DNA of 63,473 nucleotides, filler included. It is 7 parts of 7 records of this genome, joined end to end, with 100 filler letters (N's around TTAATTAATTAA, not from the genome) between each part and the next. Parts side by side here need not be neighbours in the genome. Positions count along the whole stretch, not along the records: positions 26,947 to 35,969 come from DRR723986_46410; 6 more parts are not named here. One strand, given 5' to 3'. Under the pieces are notes generated by a model. The model was given only the letters and a program-made list of their open reading frames with translations. It was not told the DNA's origin and did no database searches. Positions 26,947-35,969 of the stretch are shown piece after piece. Both the position numbers and the translations under genes were made by a program. Numbering within the stretch: position 1 is the first letter of the stretch; every line of letters begins with the position of its first letter.

Positions 26947-26980
26947 GCGCGAAGAGCGTGAAGAGATGTGCCCGGTGACC

Positions 26981-27211
26981 TGAGACCCGACTTCCCTCCA
27001 GCCTTTGGGAGAATCCGATGGTTGATTTCTGGCCTCATGCAGCCTGGGTTTCCAGTCTCGATTTGATTGCAAATTCCTCGGGCGTCAGGTTGCCGAGGGA
27101 TGAGTGGGGTCTTTGACGGTTGTAGTCCTCCTTCCAGGCTGTGATCTTCTCGCAGGCCTCAGACAGCGACGAGAACAGCGTTTCGTTGAGAAGCTCATCG
27201 CGGAAGCTGCC
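26981..27211 (-). mobile_element. IS3-family remnant: transposase C-terminus and probable right end
   Basis: GSFRDELLNETLF...AWKEDYNRQRPHSSLGNLTPEEFA, stop at 27035; putative end TGAGACCCGACTTCCCTCCA at 26981. Confidence 0.85.
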
Positions 27212-27310
27212 TGCGTAATCCGGTGTGATCCGGCCACCCATTCCAAAAACATCCGGCCACCCCTACCGATTTTACCCGGCCATTGAATCCGGAACATCCG
27301 GCCACCTCTC
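27212..27310. mobile_element. IS21-family terminal region
   Basis: Starts TGCGTAATCCGG, followed by 3-4 spaced copies of (AT)CCGGCCA(CC), typical of the multiple transposase-binding repeats at IS21 ends. Confidence 0.6.
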
Positions 27311-27356
27311 TGACGTGTTGCTGTGAGGCGATCAGCAGCCCGCTACCTTGCGGTTC

Positions 27357-27523
27357 GGTGCTGGCAGACTAATCCGAACCAGTCTCTGCTAGGACAGTCT
27401 CACTGCCCCCTATTCGGCGCAAAGTCCCCGCCACTCGGCCAGAGCGGCGGTTCGGTTCAGCTTGAAGAGGTTTCGGCTGGAGAGACTGCGTTCCTGGTTA
27501 AAGTGGTTTGAGATTGAGGCATG
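27357..27523 (-). mobile_element. IS6-family remnant: transposase C-terminus and end
   Basis: HASISNHFNQERSLSSRNLFKLNRTAALAEWRGLCAE* (stop 27410); IR-like GGTGCTGGCAGAC at 27357. Confidence 0.75.
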
Positions 27524-28433
27524 GTGCGTGCCATGGGGCTGACAGGGACCTCGAAGAGCCAGGTCTCGCGGCTTTGCGAGGACATCGACGAGCGGGTGCA
27601 AGCATTCCTGAACCGCCCCATTGAGGGCGACTGGCCCTTCCTTTGGCTCGACGCCACCTACGTGAAGCTGCGTGAGTGCGGACGCATCGTCTCGATGGCG
27701 GTGATAGTGGCCGTCGCGGTCAACACCGACGGACGCCGGGAGATCCTCGGGATCACGGTTCTGCCCTCGGAGGCCGAGACGTTCTGGTCCGACTTCCTTC
27801 GCTCTCTGACGCGACGCGGCCTGCGCGGCGTGCAGATGGTGATCAGCGACGCCCACGAGGGCCTGAAGGCCGCCGCGCGCAAGGTCCTGGGGGCCGGATG
27901 GCAGCGTTGCCGGGTGCATTTTCAGCGCAACCTGCTCGCCCGGGTGAACAAGGCCCACAAGCCCGTGGTCAGCGCCGTGGTGAAGACCGTTTTCGCCGAG
28001 AAGGAGCGCGACCAGGCCCATGTCCGCTGGCGCGAGGTGGCTGACAACCTGCGGGAGCGGTTCCGAGACGTGGCCGAGTTGATGGACGAGGCCGAACACG
28101 ACGTACTCGCCTATATGGCTTTCGACGAGAGCCTGCGCTCGAAGTTGCACAGCACAAACCCGCTGGAGCGCCTCAACAAGGAGATCAAGCGGCGGACCAA
28201 CGTGATCGGGATCTTCCCGAACCGCGAGGCCGTAATCCGCCTCGTCGGCGCGCTCATGCTCGAGCAGAACGATGAGTGGGCCGTCTCGCGCCGCTACATG
28301 CCGGTGGAAAAACTGACCGCCATGTGCAACGATCAAGATGCGGCGACGATGATCGCCGCTCAGTGAAAGAACGACACCAGCTATGAAGAAGCAGGTGGAC
28401 GCCAGTTCCTACACCACTTCACGGGACACTACC
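27521..28433 (+). mobile_element. IS256-family element, 5' truncated (transposase fragment 27521-28366)
   Basis: SKSQVSRLC, LWLDATYVK, VISDAHEGL, WQRCRVHF, STNPLERLNKEIKRRT; N-terminal part missing; end TTCCTACACCACTTCACGGGACACTACC. Confidence 0.9.
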
Positions 28434-28878
28434 CGGTGACGCGACGAGCGGAAACGATCAATACGAGAACCGGAGCCTGGGTCAGATCGCTGCTGATGCG
28501 CAAGCCGACACGAATCGTCACCGTAGCCATTGCGAACAAGACGGCACGCACCGCCTGGGCGCTACTGGCGAAGGGCGGCACATACCGAGCCGCGCCGGCC
28601 AACTGATCGAAGGAGAAACACGGCGGCGAATGCAGCGTCGCAACGAGATGCAAGGGCAATAGAGAGTGATGATAATCGAAAGCGGCCGCTACCAGGATAC
28701 CCCGAGGCATTGTCTGGACCTCAGAGTCCGATCTTCTGATCGGGACCCGGTACGCGGACTTCATCAGGGCCAGCGGTCAAATGCACCGCGCACAAAGGCC
28801 GGACAAATGACCGCAACCTGCTTCGATCAAACATCGCTCAACAAATCCCTTGCAAAACAGGAGCCGTCCACAAATGAC
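28434..28878 (+). mobile_element. IS110-family (IS1111 group) remnant: transposase C-terminus (28436-28606) and long right non-coding end
   Basis: Frame not in ORF track: WVRSLLMRKPTRIVTVAIANKTARTAWALLAKGGTY; about 270 nt downstream NCR ending CTTGCAAAACAGGAGCCGTCCACAAATGAC. Confidence 0.8.
28607..28830 (+). ncRNA. Candidate bridge/seek RNA of the IS1111-type element (boundaries approximate)
   Basis: Lies in the right NCR; contains ACAAATGAC (identical to the element end) and GGCATTGTC (near reverse complement of the right flank). Confidence 0.5.
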
Positions 28879-29294
28879 AGTGCCCTTTCATATTGAACCG
28901 TCCTTTCAATATAAGTGTTCGAATTACACTTATTGCTCTACAGGACGCGCCCTTCAACAGATAGTGTGAAATATAAAGTAACATAATGTTTCAAGGTGTT
29001 ACAAGAACCGCTCTTCAGCCCGATGAACGGCGGACTAGCTATTGTCATCAGGCGTACCAGGTCGATCTATAGACCCTATCCAAGTAGACACAACCAGAGG
29101 ATCTAACACTGAGGGGTACGCACGAAACGGCCGATGGCATCACCAAGGCGCGATCCAAGGTGCTCTCATCAAGCCGGGTTTCTGTCCTAGCCTTCAGGAA
29201 GCAGTTTGCAATTTCGGGCAGGAGGCGTAAGCAGCAATGTTATGGTGAGTCGGAGTGTTTCAATCTACATCTTTAAGACTGAGGAGATGGACTG

Positions 29295-29948
29295 ATGCCT
29301 CTCGAAGTCGTAGGCGCTGGCTTCGGCAGAACCGGAACCTATACGATCAAGCTGGCTTTGGAGTATCTCGGGTTCAGCCCCTGTCATCACATGTACGAGG
29401 TCAGAAAACGCCCGGAGATGCTGCGTCCATGGCAGGATGCTTTGATTGGACAGAGCCCCGATTGGGGGAAGGTGTTTGCAGATTTCCGCGCTCAGGTGGA
29501 CTGGCCAGCAGCAGCCTATTGGAAAGAGCTGGTCAACGCCTTCCCAGAGGCGAAAGTTCTACTTTCGGTTCGTGATCCAGATGAATGGTATGCAAGCGTT
29601 TCAGCGACGATCCTCCCTTCAGTTACCGAGGGCCTTGAGCTCGACCGGGATAACTTCTCCCGGGAGGCTTCAGAAATGATCTTCCATACTGTCCATGAAA
29701 AAGTGTTTGGTGGGCGCCTCGGCGATAAGAAGACGGCTATATCAATCTACCTTGCGCACATAGATGAAGTGCGCTCCAGTGTCCCCGCCGAGCGCCTTTT
29801 GGTCTACAACGTTTCGTCAGGTTGGGAGCCACTGTGCGCCTTCCTGGGAAAGGAGTGCCCCAATGTGCCGTTTCCACACACGAACTCCACCAATGAGTTC
29901 CTCAGGCGCAAGCCACACCTTAGCGCCCTCACCACTAACATAAATTAG
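29295..29948 (+). CDS. Sulfotransferase family protein (Sulfotransfer_4-like)
   Basis: GAGFGRTGT 5'-PSB loop, CHHM, DWP, LSVRDPDEWYAS 3'-PB motif, GWEPLCAFLG..P..PFPHTN; GAGGAG RBS. Confidence 0.88.
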   Translation: MPLEVVGAGFGRTGTYTIKLALEYLGFSPCHHMYEVRKRPEMLRPWQDALIGQSPDWGKVFADFRAQVDWPAAAYWKELVNAFPEAKVLLSVRDPDEWYASVSATILPSVTEGLELDRDNFSREASEMIFHTVHEKVFGGRLGDKKTAISIYLAHIDEVRSSVPAERLLVYNVSSGWEPLCAFLGKECPNVPFPHTNSTNEFLRRKPHLSALTTNIN

Positions 29949-30074
29949 CGGGAGCGCTCTGCTGGAATGATTAATGCGGAAGATCCTTTCGCGCCCGGCG
30001 TATCGGTCGCAACATAATCAGATCCTGCAAAAAGCTACTAGAAATCAAAATACCCAACCTCCTCTGTTGAGGCT

Positions 30075-31541
30075 ATGGAGGAAAGTGAAATGATCACAGA
30101 GCACCACACAGACACAGTTGGGACGAAATTCCTGCGGACAGCAGCGCGATGCCCAGACCACTTTGCAATCATTTCTGAGGACATGTTCATCAACTATGAA
30201 GAACTCTCAGAGTCTACGTTGCGAATAGCAGGCCGTCTGAAGCAGCATGGCGTCGCCCCAGGATCCCTGGTTACGCTCGATGGTGAGGACTTCCTGATTG
30301 TTGTACAATCGATTATCGCTTGCTCCCTCCTTGGCGCCGCTTGGATAGCCAGAAAGAATCTTGAGGCCGCGCCAGGCGTTGTCGAACCAACACACATTCT
30401 AAGCCTCCAGGAAACTGAGGGCATGGATCAGTCGGCTATTCTGAGAATTGACCAATCTTGGCTGGAAGGACCGAAACTTCAGGGGCCGTACGCAAAAGAC
30501 GTCGAAGCTCCCCTCATCTTTACAAACACCTCCGGAACAACGGGTACTCCAAAGATGCTGTCGCTCAGCCAAAAGAGCATGATGCTCAGGGCACAGGCTG
30601 CATGCGAGGATTTTAGAGAGCGTGAAACGGTCTTTACGAGCCTCTTTCGCCCAATCGCATTTCCATACATTGCGCGCTTCCTCTCGGCATTGGTTAACGG
30701 GTCGACCGTTGTGCATAGCCGAAACGTAGACTTCTGGCGGGCTTGTGGCCTCAACCACCTGTACGGATCAGTGACACAAGTCGCAGACTTCCTGGGTGAC
30801 AAGATACTATCTCCGAGACTTCCGATGATACATGTTTCGGGATCGAAACTTCGGGATGGACTTGCGCGGAACTTGCTGAAGAGTTTCGACGTAGTTGTTG
30901 ATCTATATGCCTCAACAGAAACCAATCGAAGTTTCAAGAACTTGAAGTCTCTTGGAGACAACGGGGACATTGTTACAACGGGTCAGCCACTTGATAGCGA
31001 GGTGCAGATCGTCTCTGAGGACGGACAACTCTTACCGACTGGCGAAGTCGGCTATGTTAGGGTCCGCAACAAATACCTCGCCGAAACCTATTTGAATGCC
31101 CCTCAGGCTGCGAAAACGTCGTTCCGTGACGGCTGGTTCTTTAGTGGAGACATGGGTGTTTTCGGGCCTCGCGGAGAGCTCAAGATACTTGGTCGGACGG
31201 GTGATGTCATCAATACTGGCGGGATAAAAGTAAATGCCTCAGCCATCGATGACTTCTTGCTGGAACAAGAGGGGATTGTGGATGCCATGTGCTTCGAACA
31301 TCCAACAGATTTCGGGCCGAGCGAGATATTCGCACTTCTCGTTCTAGAGAACGGGCAGAGGCTCAATGAGGTCGCTGAACGGGTTGCAAGGGCGTGTCAA
31401 AAGTCCCTTGGTATCGCTAGAACACCAAAACGGATGATTGAGGTCGCTGAAGTTCCTAGAGCTCACGACGGGGGCGCTAAACGGTCGGAATGCCTCAACC
31501 TCTACAAGTCACTGGTAGGAGCCGTAAATGCTTCCAGTTGA
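30075..31541 (+). CDS. ANL/AMP-binding enzyme paralogue 1
   Basis: TSGTTGTPK, YASTETN, GWFFSGDMG, GRTGDVINTGGIKV; A10 region PRAHDGGAKR lacks the canonical GK. Confidence 0.85.
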   Translation: MEESEMITEHHTDTVGTKFLRTAARCPDHFAIISEDMFINYEELSESTLRIAGRLKQHGVAPGSLVTLDGEDFLIVVQSIIACSLLGAAWIARKNLEAAPGVVEPTHILSLQETEGMDQSAILRIDQSWLEGPKLQGPYAKDVEAPLIFTNTSGTTGTPKMLSLSQKSMMLRAQAACEDFRERETVFTSLFRPIAFPYIARFLSALVNGSTVVHSRNVDFWRACGLNHLYGSVTQVADFLGDKILSPRLPMIHVSGSKLRDGLARNLLKSFDVVVDLYASTETNRSFKNLKSLGDNGDIVTTGQPLDSEVQIVSEDGQLLPTGEVGYVRVRNKYLAETYLNAPQAAKTSFRDGWFFSGDMGVFGPRGELKILGRTGDVINTGGIKVNASAIDDFLLEQEGIVDAMCFEHPTDFGPSEIFALLVLENGQRLNEVAERVARACQKSLGIARTPKRMIEVAEVPRAHDGGAKRSECLNLYKSLVGAVNASS

Positions 31542-33012
31542 CGAAGCGGCGCGCACGCTCGCCCGGAGCTATCAATCTGCTGCCGAAGAATTTGGTGACT
31601 TCCCGTGCATCGTCACACATTCTGGTCACTTATTACACCGCGACTTTTGGCGCATTAGTTTGGCCTTCGCAGAGAAGATCAGTGCGCTGGGGGTGCCTCG
31701 TGGGGCTCTCATCGCCCTGAATACCGCCGACATCGTAGTGTCGCTCGCGGTAATGATGGCAAGTTCCCTCCTGGGTCTGCGTTTGGTGGTGGCTAGTCAC
31801 ACCCTTGCAGGCTCCAAGTTGTTCAAACCAGATCTCTTCTTGAAGTCCCCGGAGGCAAAGGGCAGCACAAGAGTAGACTTCGAGGTGATTGATCAAAGCT
31901 GGTATCCGGGACAATCAGAGCCACTTGCGGATAACTTCGAGGGTCCTGAGGATCTTCACGCGGATTGGCTCTATCTCCATACCTCTGGGACGACCGGTCA
32001 ACCGAAGTATTTTGCTCTCAGCGAGCGGTGCGTTCTAGACCGCAGCAGGGCGGTGTCCTTCGACTTCCCGGAAGCCCAGATCACACTCGCAATGACCTAC
32101 AAAGTTGGCTCGCGTCCCTTCTATGCAAGAACCACAGCAGCCCTTTTGAATGGCTGCGCAATCGTGGAAGGCGCTGATCCGGAGTTTTGGGAAAGAAGTG
32201 GGGTGAATTTTGTTTGTGGATCGCCATCACAATTGTCCAAGATTCTGGAGCGCAGCAGCCTCTCCAGAAAATTGGAATGTGTTGAAACCGCAGGGGCGCC
32301 CCTAACCGATGAGATCGCGTTTGAGTGCCTCTCTCGCTTCGAGCGTGTTACGGACATCTATGGTGCGGGCGAAACCAACAAAACCTATGTCAATGTCGTT
32401 TCCCTTCAGTCTGATGGGCATCTCTCTCTCAGCGGCTTCGCGGTTCCAGGGAGCACTGTCGAGATTGTCGATGACACCGGCCGTGCACTGGAAACGGGAA
32501 AGATTGGCAAAGTGAGGGTCAGAAACAATCACATGATCTCAGGATATATCGGGCGTGATGCCAACCATGATTCACCTTTTCTGGATGGTTGGTTTTACCC
32601 AGGGGATTTGGGGTACATTGATCTTCAGGGCGCTCTTCATATTGTTGCACGTGACGATGATGTTCTCAATCTGGGTGGTTACAAGATCAATGCAAACTTA
32701 GTTGATGCAGTCGTGCGGTCGATTCCTGGGGTTAAAGATGCCATTAGTATCCGCAATCCGATCCCGGGGGCGGCGAACCCAGTTCTTATCTTCGCAGCCT
32801 TCAATCAGCATGATGATCCGGGCGCTCTCGCAGGGGTGATGGAGGACATCAGACAACGTTGCCAGGTCAACCTGAGCCTGGTTCTCGGGATTACCGCGAT
32901 CCGCGAGATTGATGAAGTTCCGTACAATGAGGCGGGAAAACCGAGCCGACGCGCTTGCGAAGCGATGGTTCTGGCTCGCGAGGGCACTCAGCGAGGACAC
33001 CGAGCGAAATGA
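31528..33012 (+). CDS. ANL/AMP-binding enzyme paralogue 2 (A3, A5, A7, A8 and A10 motifs intact)
   Basis: TSGTTGQPK, YGAGETN, GWFYPGDLG, RDDDVLNLGGYKI, PYNEAGKPSR. Confidence 0.87.
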   Translation: MLPVDEAARTLARSYQSAAEEFGDFPCIVTHSGHLLHRDFWRISLAFAEKISALGVPRGALIALNTADIVVSLAVMMASSLLGLRLVVASHTLAGSKLFKPDLFLKSPEAKGSTRVDFEVIDQSWYPGQSEPLADNFEGPEDLHADWLYLHTSGTTGQPKYFALSERCVLDRSRAVSFDFPEAQITLAMTYKVGSRPFYARTTAALLNGCAIVEGADPEFWERSGVNFVCGSPSQLSKILERSSLSRKLECVETAGAPLTDEIAFECLSRFERVTDIYGAGETNKTYVNVVSLQSDGHLSLSGFAVPGSTVEIVDDTGRALETGKIGKVRVRNNHMISGYIGRDANHDSPFLDGWFYPGDLGYIDLQGALHIVARDDDVLNLGGYKINANLVDAVVRSIPGVKDAISIRNPIPGAANPVLIFAAFNQHDDPGALAGVMEDIRQRCQVNLSLVLGITAIREIDEVPYNEAGKPSRRACEAMVLAREGTQRGHRAK

Positions 33013-34454
33013 CCGATCTATCATCAGGTGTCGCCGGGCTTTTTCGGAGTGTAGCCTCCCGGATACCAGATCACCCCGCCATCATCGCACCTGACATTAC
33101 AATCTCCTATGGGAAGCTTTGGCGGATTGCCCGCGGGTTTGCCCTCAGGATGTCTCAACTGGGGATTGATGATCGCTCAATCATTGCACTGCACTCGCAT
33201 GATATGATTGCAACTCTTGCGACCATGCTTGCTGCATCCATTCGCAACGCGGCATTGGTTTCATACGAACCTCGTCTGATCACCGACGCTGTCGTCAGGC
33301 CAACACACTTCCTTTGTACGCCGGACATGATAAAGCATGGCGGCGAAAATATGCATCTCATCAGCGCGGATTGGCCGCAAGCTGCCCCAGAAGATGAGAG
33401 TGAATTGGGTGACCACCCACCAGCGCTGCTGGACAAGCCCTGGTGGACCCTTCGTACCTCCGGAACAACAGGTACGCCAAAGTACATGATGATCTCGCAA
33501 CGCTGTGTCGTGGCTCGGTCGCGCGCTGTTTCACAAGATTTCAAGGAACAAGAGACGGTCATGACTTCCTTGTTCAGTTGTCATACACGTCCCTTCATGG
33601 TCCGTGCGACCGCCTCCCTGCTAAATGGGTGTACGATCGTCGACTCCGTCGATCCCCAATTTATGGCCAGCAATGACGTCAACCTCGTTTTCGGATCTCC
33701 CTCCAGTGCGATAGCGTGGCTTTCTGGCCGCGTCATTGCGCCACGAATGAAACGACTCCAGGTTAGCGGCGCGCCACTTTCGGATGCGGCTGCGAAAACG
33801 CTTCTCAGAAGCTTCGAAACTGTTGAAGACGTGTACGGTGCCAGCGAAACAAATAAGTCATTTGTAAACGTGAAATGTCTTGAGAACGGGGAAGTCGTAA
33901 CCTTCGGCGTCCCTCAGGACAGCGACGTTGAAATTGTCGATCCAACCGGCGCCGTCTGCCCAAAGGGGGTAACGGGCTCCGTGAGAGTGAGAAACAACTA
34001 TATGGCCTCAGGGTATATAGATGAGCCGGATGCGACCGCCAGATGCTTCATAGATGGATGGTTTGTACCAGGAGACATAGCCGAGTGGACTGAAAAGGGC
34101 GCATTGCGCGTAGCTGGGCGCATAGATAATGTCATCAACATCGGGGGAAGAAAGGTCGAAACCTCCCAAATCGAAAGAATACTCGAAGCGACCCAGGGCA
34201 TCATCGATGCAATCGCATTTGAGGATCCTGTTGATCGCGAAACCCCTGGCGTACTCGCCATGGTGCGTCTCTCGGATCGCGTTCATGCAGATGCCGTGAT
34301 AGCCGCTGCACGTCAGGCATGCCTGGAACAGCTCGGACCCGCGCTCGCGCCACGCTATATCTATGTGATGCAGTCCTTCCCAAAGACAGATGATGGAGTG
34401 ACTTCCAGAGCAGAAGCCGCAATGCTTGCTAGGTCTCTGCCTCGCCCAAAATGA
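33009..34454 (+). CDS. ANL/AMP-binding enzyme paralogue 3
   Basis: ATG 33009 overlaps the previous TGA; TSGTTGTPK, YGASETN, GWFVPGDIA, GRIDNVINIGGRKV; A10 PKTDDGVTSR (Lys to Val). Confidence 0.85.
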   Translation: MTDLSSGVAGLFRSVASRIPDHPAIIAPDITISYGKLWRIARGFALRMSQLGIDDRSIIALHSHDMIATLATMLAASIRNAALVSYEPRLITDAVVRPTHFLCTPDMIKHGGENMHLISADWPQAAPEDESELGDHPPALLDKPWWTLRTSGTTGTPKYMMISQRCVVARSRAVSQDFKEQETVMTSLFSCHTRPFMVRATASLLNGCTIVDSVDPQFMASNDVNLVFGSPSSAIAWLSGRVIAPRMKRLQVSGAPLSDAAAKTLLRSFETVEDVYGASETNKSFVNVKCLENGEVVTFGVPQDSDVEIVDPTGAVCPKGVTGSVRVRNNYMASGYIDEPDATARCFIDGWFVPGDIAEWTEKGALRVAGRIDNVINIGGRKVETSQIERILEATQGIIDAIAFEDPVDRETPGVLAMVRLSDRVHADAVIAAARQACLEQLGPALAPRYIYVMQSFPKTDDGVTSRAEAAMLARSLPRPK

Positions 34455-35929
34455 ATAAGTCAAGGCCATATGAGCCTTCAAATGAGAGCGACATGAACCC
34501 CGCATCCAAGCTATTTGACCTCGCATCCGCTGCACCTGAACGCATCGCACTCGAGTTTCCTGATCACGCATTTACCCTCGAAAATCTTGCTGCACTGGTG
34601 TCGTCCTTTGCCATGAAGATGAGAGACTGCGGTGTCGGTGGAGGAACACTTGTTGAAATTCGCAAGGGAGATGACTTGGTTAGGTTGGCCGTGTGTTTCG
34701 CAACGGCTGCCTTGGGGGCGAAACTGCTTGTTATTGACGAAGGATTGAACAATCCCGCCTCGCCTGAGGCGGAAATCTGCCTCACGACCGGACATATTCA
34801 TGACAGCGGCGAGAGTTTTCGAGGAAAGACCTTTGTAATCGACGAATCTTGGGCTCCCAAGTCCAGTTCTGAGCGGATGGCCCCCGAGGGGTCCATTGAG
34901 AGCGATGCCCCTTGGATTATTGCTTCTACGGTCTGGACCGTCGGACCGCCTAGGCTTCTCAGCATCTCACACAGACTGCTCGCGGCCCGGCTCCATACCG
35001 CTTCAGCAATCAGTCCGCGGGCAGGAAAGAGGATCTTTGCATTGCCAGGGATCGGACGCACTGCCCGCCTCATGGAGGCAATAAATTGCATCCTGGCTGG
35101 TGGGACTTGGATTGCTGAGGAAGATTCTAGCGTGCTTCGCGATGATGGTGCGCGTGTTGTCGTCGGAACGGCGCCTGATCTTCTTAGGTATGCAAGGCTT
35201 GCTGCGCCGCAGGCTCTTGGCCCTGCAGAACTAGCGACATCGTTTTTTCTTGATGCGGATATTTCGGCGATTTTAGATCAGTTTAAGTCCGTATCGGCTA
35301 CTGTCACACCGCTTGAGTTTGGCCCATTGTGTTGCCTGCCGATCAAGCATGGACGTGTCCTTGCGCGCTTCGATGAAGGATCGCTTGGAGAAACTGAAAT
35401 TCTGTTTGTTGATGGTGAAGGCTCAAGTGTTAAGCAGGGTCACACAGGCATTGCACTGATAAAAAGTCCCCACATGGCGGATATGCTGGACCCGAGTGAT
35501 CTTGAACAGACGTCAACCGAGCGTCAGGGTTTTCTTCCTCTACACAGAGTGGGTCGACGGCTGGACGACGGGAATATCGAGATAGGCCAGACGGCTCATT
35601 TCATCCAGATGGACACTGGGCAGATCGTTGACGCTGCGGAGGTGGAAGAGTCCTGTAGACTTGGCCACGACATCGTTGATGCCATAGCTTTTTTGAACCC
35701 AAAGGACGGAGCAGTAAAAGAGTTTTTCGCGTTCCTGAAGGCGGAAGAAGGCCGCAATCAGCTTCAGCTAATTGCCTCTGCAAAATACCATGTTGGAAAG
35801 CGTGTAGGAAAAGGTGCAGTCCCTCGAATCATTCAAGTCGTTGGCGACATTCCCCGCGACAGTTTTGGGCGCCCTGACCGCGAGGCCTGTGCGAAGTTCA
35901 TTTTGGAGGCTCGAGGGCGAAGCCGTTGA
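34451..35929 (+). CDS. Degenerate ANL-fold paralogue 4 (probable pseudo-enzyme)
   Basis: Collinear with paralogues 1-3 (VIDESW, DAIAF.NP, IPRDSFGRPDR) but P-loop reads STVWTVGPPR and the GD and GR.D motifs are lost; reading frame intact. Confidence 0.7.
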   Translation: MNKSRPYEPSNESDMNPASKLFDLASAAPERIALEFPDHAFTLENLAALVSSFAMKMRDCGVGGGTLVEIRKGDDLVRLAVCFATAALGAKLLVIDEGLNNPASPEAEICLTTGHIHDSGESFRGKTFVIDESWAPKSSSERMAPEGSIESDAPWIIASTVWTVGPPRLLSISHRLLAARLHTASAISPRAGKRIFALPGIGRTARLMEAINCILAGGTWIAEEDSSVLRDDGARVVVGTAPDLLRYARLAAPQALGPAELATSFFLDADISAILDQFKSVSATVTPLEFGPLCCLPIKHGRVLARFDEGSLGETEILFVDGEGSSVKQGHTGIALIKSPHMADMLDPSDLEQTSTERQGFLPLHRVGRRLDDGNIEIGQTAHFIQMDTGQIVDAAEVEESCRLGHDIVDAIAFLNPKDGAVKEFFAFLKAEEGRNQLQLIASAKYHVGKRVGKGAVPRIIQVVGDIPRDSFGRPDREACAKFILEARGRSR

Positions 35930-35969
35930 TAACACTTATGGAACGTCTGAAGAACCTCCCCATTTTGGC

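Follow-up and report, generated by a model that had tools for sequence, protein, structure and literature searches.

The window examined here is a stretch of 63,473 nucleotides (positions 1-63473) which carries, between 29295 and 35929, a block of five genes encoding a sulfotransferase and four paralogous enzymes of the adenylate-forming (ANL) fold. We propose that this block, which belongs to a gene cluster conserved in aquatic alphaproteobacteria, is the mobile core of a pathway independent of carrier proteins, in which a hydroxybenzoate unit is sulfated and ligated, and in which a small outer-membrane barrel, encoded 3′ of the core in many relatives, would be a channel or an acceptor. We hold this proposal to be evenly balanced between right and wrong. 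The substrate would most likely be protocatechuate. A neighbourhood check recovered the same gene set in other genomes and, given this recurrence, the arrangement is beyond chance.

All five open reading frames (ORFs) described in an earlier note on this DNA are present, on the plus strand. The gene at 29295..29948 encodes a 217-aa sulfotransferase dependent on 3′-phosphoadenosine-5′-phosphosulfate (PAPS); it scored 210.6 bits against PF17784 (cut-off 22.8) and matched the profile over its full length (positions 1-215). It is conserved over 12 aligned cluster members, with a recognisable PAPS-binding loop, and its counterparts in 11 related clusters share 44-56% identity with it. Its nearest solved structures are 9kf1 and SgdX2 (8y9p). 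The four ANL genes lying 3′ of it, here called genes 1 to 4, were assigned to groups A, B, C and D. Gene 1 (30075..31541, PF00501 96.9 bits) probably starts at the ATG at 30090, giving 483 aa, as GGAGG is found just upstream; its P-loop, A5 Glu, A7 Asp and A8 Arg/Lys are intact, Gly replaces the A10 Lys, and it shares 22-35% identity with the other three. Gene 2 (31528..33012, 494 aa, 81.7 bits) keeps every core motif including the A10 lysine, Lys471. Its predicted model has the ANL fold (mean pLDDT 92.5) and aligned to the listed ANL structures with a Foldseek TM of about 0.6-0.77 at 16-22% identity. In gene 3 (33009..34454, 481 aa, 108 bits) the A10 Lys is replaced by V. Genes 1 to 3 thus passed the PF00501 cut-off of 29.9 bits, and gene 4 (34451..35929, 19.1 bits) failed it, yet it groups with clade D. 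The IDQSW-type motifs reported for the four proteins are present; the ETN[KR] signature is found in genes 1 to 3 and is missing from gene 4, and the Arg said to stand where acyl-CoA ligases have the His of PLFH occurs in gene 2 and gene 3 and is absent from gene 1; a nearly invariant Arg follows five residues later.

Gene 4 is degenerate. Its frame is full length, but the Ser-Gly and Lys of the P-loop are gone, as are A7 Asp, A8 Arg and A10 Lys (R at A10), so that gene 2 is the only window gene with an A10 Lys. The earlier note overlooked both this loss of motifs and the scarcity of the A10 Lys across the family. An orthologue from Rhodobacterales HKCCSP123 (P0122), 60% identical, is full length and equally degenerate; judged from this pair of sequences, gene 4 is therefore a maintained pseudo-enzyme and not a case of fresh decay. 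P0122 starts at the equivalent of Met15 of gene 4 (34493), which may be the start of gene 4 as well, and a cluster member is called at 478 aa. The overlaps claimed earlier, 14 nt between genes 1 and 2 and ATGA at the next two junctions, are as reported, but the start of P0122 makes the coupling of gene 4 uncertain. The closest orthologues of the window genes are P0002 and P0122, both encoded on one contig of 26 kb.

Known ligase families did not account for these proteins. Against the NCBIfam ligase models (the 25 best per protein), the window ANLs reached at best 131.6 bits, for cut-offs of 317 to 2500, which places them far below every cut-off shown, FACL, MenE and DhbE included; TIGR01733 gave 84-119 bits against 317. 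An anti-phage defence system was also considered and rejected, as none of 8 proteins matched a PADLOC profile at E 1e-5.

The trees support a single ANL subfamily, as had been suggested, and split the window proteins into the four groups A, B, C and D (FastTree supports 1.0, 0.97, 1.0 and 0.93; SH-aLRT 100, 77, 100 and 67, B and D being the weaker clades). Its expansion in place is not supported. Over 12 clusters, all 36 B, C and D genes had as best match the gene of the same letter in another cluster, which rules out a local expansion and indicates that the duplications are old and pre-date the spread of the cluster. Mean identity was 41.6% between orthologues and 34.4% between paralogues of one cluster. 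From these comparisons we conclude that there are four old orthologous groups, whose paralogues diverged before the cluster spread. A 991-aa fusion of B and C (P0257) was found once among 1.84 billion representatives searched.

About 90 sequences are closely related to gene 2 (35-74% identity), after which matches drop to generic ANL proteins; the named relatives are mostly Rhodobacteraceae and related alphaproteobacteria. A profile detected the family in 10 of 401 Rhodobacteraceae genomes, of which 7 have several copies. In an overlapping sample taken at order level, 6 of 401 genomes were positive. These counts are lower bounds, as three candidates were scored per genome and genome completeness is not given. 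Such patchiness of the cluster (7/401) agrees with the mobile, horizontally acquired block envisaged in the earlier note. Tabrizicola soli and Rhodobacterales HKCCSP123 are named isolates with family members. A GTDB pattern scan returned 77 loci, all distant (22-32% identity), and no group B match was found in plasmid sequences at E 1e-30.

Thirteen loci with at least two family genes were compared (G327, G014, G272, G225, G176, G250, G378, G473, L078, L079, L080, L086 and L087; L082 duplicates G250 and was counted once, and the short fragments L081, L083 and L089 were left out). All four groups occur in 8 of them, in the order A-B-C-D in 7 of these 8; four loci have a B-C-D set, G250 has two basal members, and G378 is frameshifted. 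The link with a sulfotransferase is conserved: a Sulfotransfer_4 gene is present in 12 loci, the exception being the short contig L078, and the same count and the same exception hold for a gene encoding an outer-membrane beta-barrel of about 200 aa (PF13505, apparent signal peptide). In four genomes the cluster sulfotransferase is the sole PF17784 gene, and PF17784 was absent from all 14 control genomes. Flanking genes vary by host, and insertion sequences (IS) lie next to the cluster of the window and to those of G250 and L087, which is consistent with mobility of the cluster.

Two unrelated routes to protocatechuate alternate at these loci. PobA is encoded in 6 of the 13, and a QuiC-type dehydratase in 3 others (one a fragment), the two never being found together. 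The three PobA proteins tested were all above the NF006091 cut-off, and Tyr201, Arg214, Tyr222, Pro293 and Tyr385 are kept in all six; a gallate-forming variant is unlikely, since Tyr385 is kept. The QuiC-type domain matched with E 1e-82 to 1e-90, under the full-length cut-off. In 5 of the 13 loci there is also a 160-aa protein with the chorismate lyase / DUF98 fold (Atlas score 0.95; model pLDDT 80.6). It was not identified by a sequence search of the PDB, and was identified by a fold search, the best Foldseek matches of the model being DUF98 and UbiC, with UTRA domains close behind. An extended short-chain dehydrogenase/reductase (SDR) is encoded in 6 loci (one partial), a flavin monooxygenase (FMO) of about 510 aa in 5, and a cytochrome P450 in one. 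The absence of a carrier gene noted for the window extends to relatives: no PF00550 gene lies near the cluster in the 5 genomes checked, where the nearest PP-binding gene is at least about 60 kb away, and 16 loci yielded no ACP-like motif. A non-ribosomal peptide synthetase (NRPS) or other carrier-linked pathway was rejected on these grounds.

Active-site residues were compared over 139 clade members, in positions taken from a profile alignment to LgrA; group B is inflated in this sample, because gene 2 was the query. The residues that bind ATP are kept (P-loop Lys 134/139, A5 Glu 139/139, A7 Asp 137/139, A8 Lys 134/139), and Arg172 is invariant (139/139). The A10 Lys, by contrast, is kept in 21 members and absent in 118; by group, it is found in 0/9 of A, where Gly takes its place in all nine, 20/87 of B, 0/20 of C and 0/18 of D. 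An Arg occupies the acyl-CoA ligase His position in 126 members, a second Arg follows five residues on in 137, and a Lys or Arg is found three residues past the A5 Glu in 132. The basic residues at pocket positions in group B are Arg196, Arg201 and Lys285. The sister clade S, whose loci have a single ANL gene, retains the A10 Lys in 6/6 and has no equivalent of Arg196 or Lys285. Aligned in this way, gain of the pocket Arg/Lys and loss of the A10 Lys appear to go together.

These observations can be assembled into a pathway. The acid would be supplied, in relatives, by the chorismate-lyase-fold protein together with PobA, or by the QuiC-type dehydroshikimate dehydratase, and in the window's host by genes from off this contig. 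The sulfotransferase would then move sulfate from PAPS to a hydroxyl group. Arg196, Arg201 and Lys285 (group B numbering) would hold the anionic substrate and stand in for the missing A10 lysine, and the four ANLs, in turn or as a complex, would adenylate the acid and couple it to an acceptor through an ester, amide or CoA thioester bond; with no carrier, the adenylate would pass to CoA, or straight to a hydroxyl or an amine. The FMO, P450 and SDR, where present, could tailor the product, and the small outer-membrane barrel would pass it through, or carry it at, the cell surface. The alternation of unrelated routes to protocatechuate is the strongest pointer to the substrate, the presence of the chorismate-lyase gene argues for synthesis rather than breakdown, and the constancy of the sulfotransferase together with the basic pocket suggests a sulfated aromatic acid. 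The earlier range of substrates, which took in glycans, lipids, proteins and small molecules, is thereby narrowed to a putative hydroxybenzoate or protocatechuate unit. In the lineage of the window, group D is likely a non-catalytic partner. The fixed order of the genes, their co-inheritance, the B-C fusion and the retention of a dead subunit suggest that the ANL proteins act together. A more specific version, a four-ligase assembly line in which the role of the lysine has moved to the acid pocket, and which would make sulfated, and in some hosts brominated, catechols for delivery by the barrel, is in our opinion unlikely. Sulfated and brominated catechol compounds are usually credited to seaweeds.

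Several points weigh against the carrier-free pathway. An ANL enzyme that loses its A10 Lys is normally crippled in adenylation. The pocket positions come from the LgrA profile alignment and not from inspection of the model, and the correlation between loss of the Lys and gain of the Arg probably reflects one evolutionary event, so that a Fisher test overstates the support. Only one B-C fusion sequence was found, and a frameshift in the assembly could account for it. PobA, QuiC, CYP203A-like P450s and FMOs are also typical of catabolism; 3 of the 13 loci (G250, G378 and L086) have no PobA, QuiC-type or P450 gene, and none of these aromatic-acid genes is on the window contig. The barrel is found in single-ANL loci too, where transporters take the place of the biosynthetic enzymes. 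Finally, an APS kinase domain, for PAPS supply, was present in all 5 hosts tested, but the domain is common (11/14 control genomes) and its presence says little.

An activated (sulfo)catechol acid might instead be ligated onto the barrel or onto a surface polysaccharide, with no free metabolite. No other partner recurs as constantly across the clade as the barrel, which is present at single-ANL loci too; Tyr is slightly more frequent in cluster barrels (mean 6.6%, n=13) than in the remaining barrels of those genomes (5.4%, n=16; p=0.014, relatedness ignored); L078, L186 and L197 border capsule- or glycosyl-like genes, as read from ORF sequences; and more distant family members lie beside autotransporter or IalB genes. 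The Tyr excess is, however, small, with overlapping ranges, the glycan-type neighbours vary by locus, and the invariant residues of the barrel, mostly glycines and strand aromatics, show no obvious acceptor motif. We regard such envelope decoration as improbable. The barrel could also serve uptake, importing aromatic acids for detoxification or catabolism, the ANLs making CoA esters, PobA, P450 and FMO oxidising, and the sulfotransferase conjugating phenols to dispose of them. This would fit the TctA/TctC-type or ABC transporters of the sister single-ANL loci, and the cluster P450 is closest to 8fbc, which we take to be a member of CYP203A. According to excerpts of PMC7780096, 4-hydroxybenzoate is bound by CYP203A1, which may have a part in the degradation of aromatics. 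We judge this quite unlikely: 5 of the 13 loci have a chorismate-lyase-fold gene; within the four-ANL clusters, the scanned neighbours (not every ORF) included no ring-cleavage dioxygenase, no transporter and no regulator; and a catabolic funnel needs no four co-linear ligases.

A third alternative treats the ANLs as mostly non-catalytic subunits that bind ATP or an aryl acid (scaffold, sensor or chaperone) while the sulfotransferase and oxygenases do the chemistry. The absence of the A10 Lys from 118 of 139 members speaks for it, as do the group D proteins of the window and P0122, which have lost most motifs at full length. Yet at least 134 of the 139 members retain each of P-loop Lys, A5 Glu, A7 Asp and A8 Arg/Lys, and all have Arg172, as expected for active enzymes, and we find this explanation very unlikely.

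The stand-alone amide-bond synthetases and aryl-acid ligases McbA, ShABS, MenE, PchD, CahJ and EntE/DhbE share with the cluster proteins the ANL fold and single-domain size, and McbA-type enzymes work without a carrier. The cluster ANLs differ from all of these in mostly lacking the A10 Lys and in forming four co-linear orthologous groups. In the petrobactin asb system, AsbF is a dehydratase, AsbC adenylates 3,4-dihydroxybenzoate and AsbD is the carrier. Relatives of the window resemble it in having a dehydroshikimate dehydratase route to protocatechuate adjoining an ANL enzyme, but have no carrier gene, no NIS synthetase among the scanned neighbours, and four ANLs with a sulfotransferase. The sulfotransferase is of the same family as SgdX2 (E 2.7e-52) and the Schistosoma SULT-OR (E about 1e-26). 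SULT-OR is described, in excerpts of PMC8193065, as sulfating a hydroxymethyl group and so turning it into a leaving group, and SgdX2 is titled an "activating" sulfotransferase in the reference list of PMC11677658. The window enzyme may yield either a stable aryl sulfate or a benzylic sulfate, which would be reactive; a candidate acid-reducing SDR is found in only 6 of the 13 loci.

In the bromophenol (bmp) gene clusters, which also serve PBDE synthesis, Bmp5 (UniProt U6BHD3) is the brominase, Bmp6 the chorismate lyase and Bmp7 a P450, and excerpts of PMC6520454 and PMC7918430 give chorismate lyase, FMO and P450 as the minimal set. Similarly, relatives of the window pair the chorismate-lyase-fold gene with the FMO of about 510 aa, joined by a P450 in G473 (the only such locus of the 13) and in the single-ANL loci L084 and L088. 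An excerpt of PMC7918430 relays the proposal that Bmp5-type bromination of 3,4-dihydroxybenzoate leads to bromocatechols, and a Bmp5 homologue of 35% identity brominates tyrosine (excerpt of PMC10051162). The cluster FMO has a lysine, Lys272, within a Thr-Lys pair found in 116 of 120 homologues (P0137-P0256), in a stretch where ancestral FMOs have none, and Lys277 of Bmp5 is described alike, against ancestral FMOs, in an excerpt of PMC10306068. An FMO from outside such clusters (G792) also aligns a Lys at this place. Unlike the bmp case, none of the trio is on the window contig, the FMO is optional in relatives (5/13), and the published bmp gene lists, in the parts consulted, include no sulfotransferase, barrel or four-ANL set. 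Excerpts of PMC13519999 gave no usable Bmp5 motif. Searches for Bmp5 returned one unrelated 30% match among plasmids and, in 380 gammaproteobacterial genomes, one match that does not, to judge by its ORFs, belong to a bmp cluster. Halogenation by the cluster FMO is thus a lead, the likeness to Bmp5 being one of description rather than of direct sequence comparison. The cluster-type FMO occurs in 3 of 401 genomes, always beside the cluster. The wider family (P0137-P0256) is, by source names, widespread in marine cyanobacteria, Flavobacteria and Rhodobacteraceae. Eight of its 120 members exceed 600 aa and two of these, when scanned, had an unassigned N-terminal extension of about 170 aa; a suspected fusion of chorismate lyase and FMO was not confirmed on that scan.

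A full-text literature search, with most subscription journals outside its coverage, found no publication on this gene combination. Papers on PF17784, judged by title and the start of the abstract, included none on this cluster, and none joining bmp genes to such a cluster was found, as judged by listing. The enzyme families are known; the type of cluster and the altered ANL active site appear undescribed. The cluster represents a recurring type with no NRPS, polyketide synthase (PKS) or carrier domain in about 2% of the sampled genomes of Rhodobacteraceae, a dominant coastal, surface-colonising group, and it offers a direct test case for adenylation without the A10 lysine and for hetero-oligomeric ANL catalysis. 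The FMO present in some of the clusters is a candidate for a single-component halogenase associated with a sulfotransferase, and could point to a bacterial source of sulfated bromophenols. As Tabrizicola soli and HKCCSP123 carry the family, experiments are feasible.

The sister clade S marks a separate system, in which a single ANL is accompanied by a barrel of this kind, by two ANL genes of more distant relationship and by transporters of the TctA/TctC or ABC type. It was seen at L085, L192, L194, L198, L165 and L225 (for instance L194:10992-19254), where the distant ANL pair is divergently arranged and a TctC-like gene and TctA transporter are sometimes accompanied by an ABC transporter. One genome, G272, carries both systems. 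At L084 and L088, one ANL and a barrel are joined to chorismate lyase, FMO and P450 genes. Genes for a chorismate-lyase-fold protein, an FMO and a P450 lie in a row at L084:247-6653, L088:5687-12094 and L196:6368-10269; this trio, in loci of alphaproteobacterial type, is, by its likeness to bmp6-bmp5-bmp7, a candidate bromophenol module. Distant ANL members also lie beside a Trp_halogenase-family gene and small ORFs of about 100 aa (L093:7441-13295, with two ANL copies, and L091:7437-11782), and near FecR and CHASE2-cyclase, IalB or autotransporter genes (L090:2274-8293, L092:8853-18064, L094:9923-13808). The latter group of neighbours hints at a general link of the clade to the cell envelope. 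The G378 copy of the cluster (L190:10168-17869) is decaying and frameshifted, and two apparently identical chorismate-lyase-like genes are found far from it (L221:8237-8707; L222:8812-9282).

Seven contigs with no relation to one another make up the window, with N-TTAATTAATTAA-N linkers between them. The GC content of these contigs ranges from about 32% to 62%, from which we conclude that the window is a mixed assembly; genes across linkers are not true neighbours. The five-gene block sits on a contig of 9,023 bp (26947-35969). Ten runs of seawater, algal, plastic and estuary metagenomes contain DNA nearly identical to it (at least half of the sampled words), and the window may derive from two of them. 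Contigs of one estuary metatranscriptome run touch genes 1 to 4 and the sulfotransferase, which cannot show transcription, and promoter and terminator scans gave results at chance level. The contig ends at 35969, 40 nt past the stop of gene 4, as had been reported. Read depth climbs in its last bin, a contig with a different upstream sequence joins at 35940, and contigs from three runs all stop exactly at 35969; we conclude that the break is at a repeat (35940..35969), likely the end of another IS. The suspicion that partner genes are missing beyond this end was borne out by the relatives, where the barrel gene is common 3′ of group D; it is not on the window contig. At the other end of the contig lie nested IS remnants (26947..28860). 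They include an IS256-type transposase (PF00872, 27521-28366) missing about the first 120 profile positions, and two short C-terminal fragments, at 27035-27262 on the minus strand and 28367-28606 on the plus strand, which we presume to be IS3-like and IS110-like respectively.

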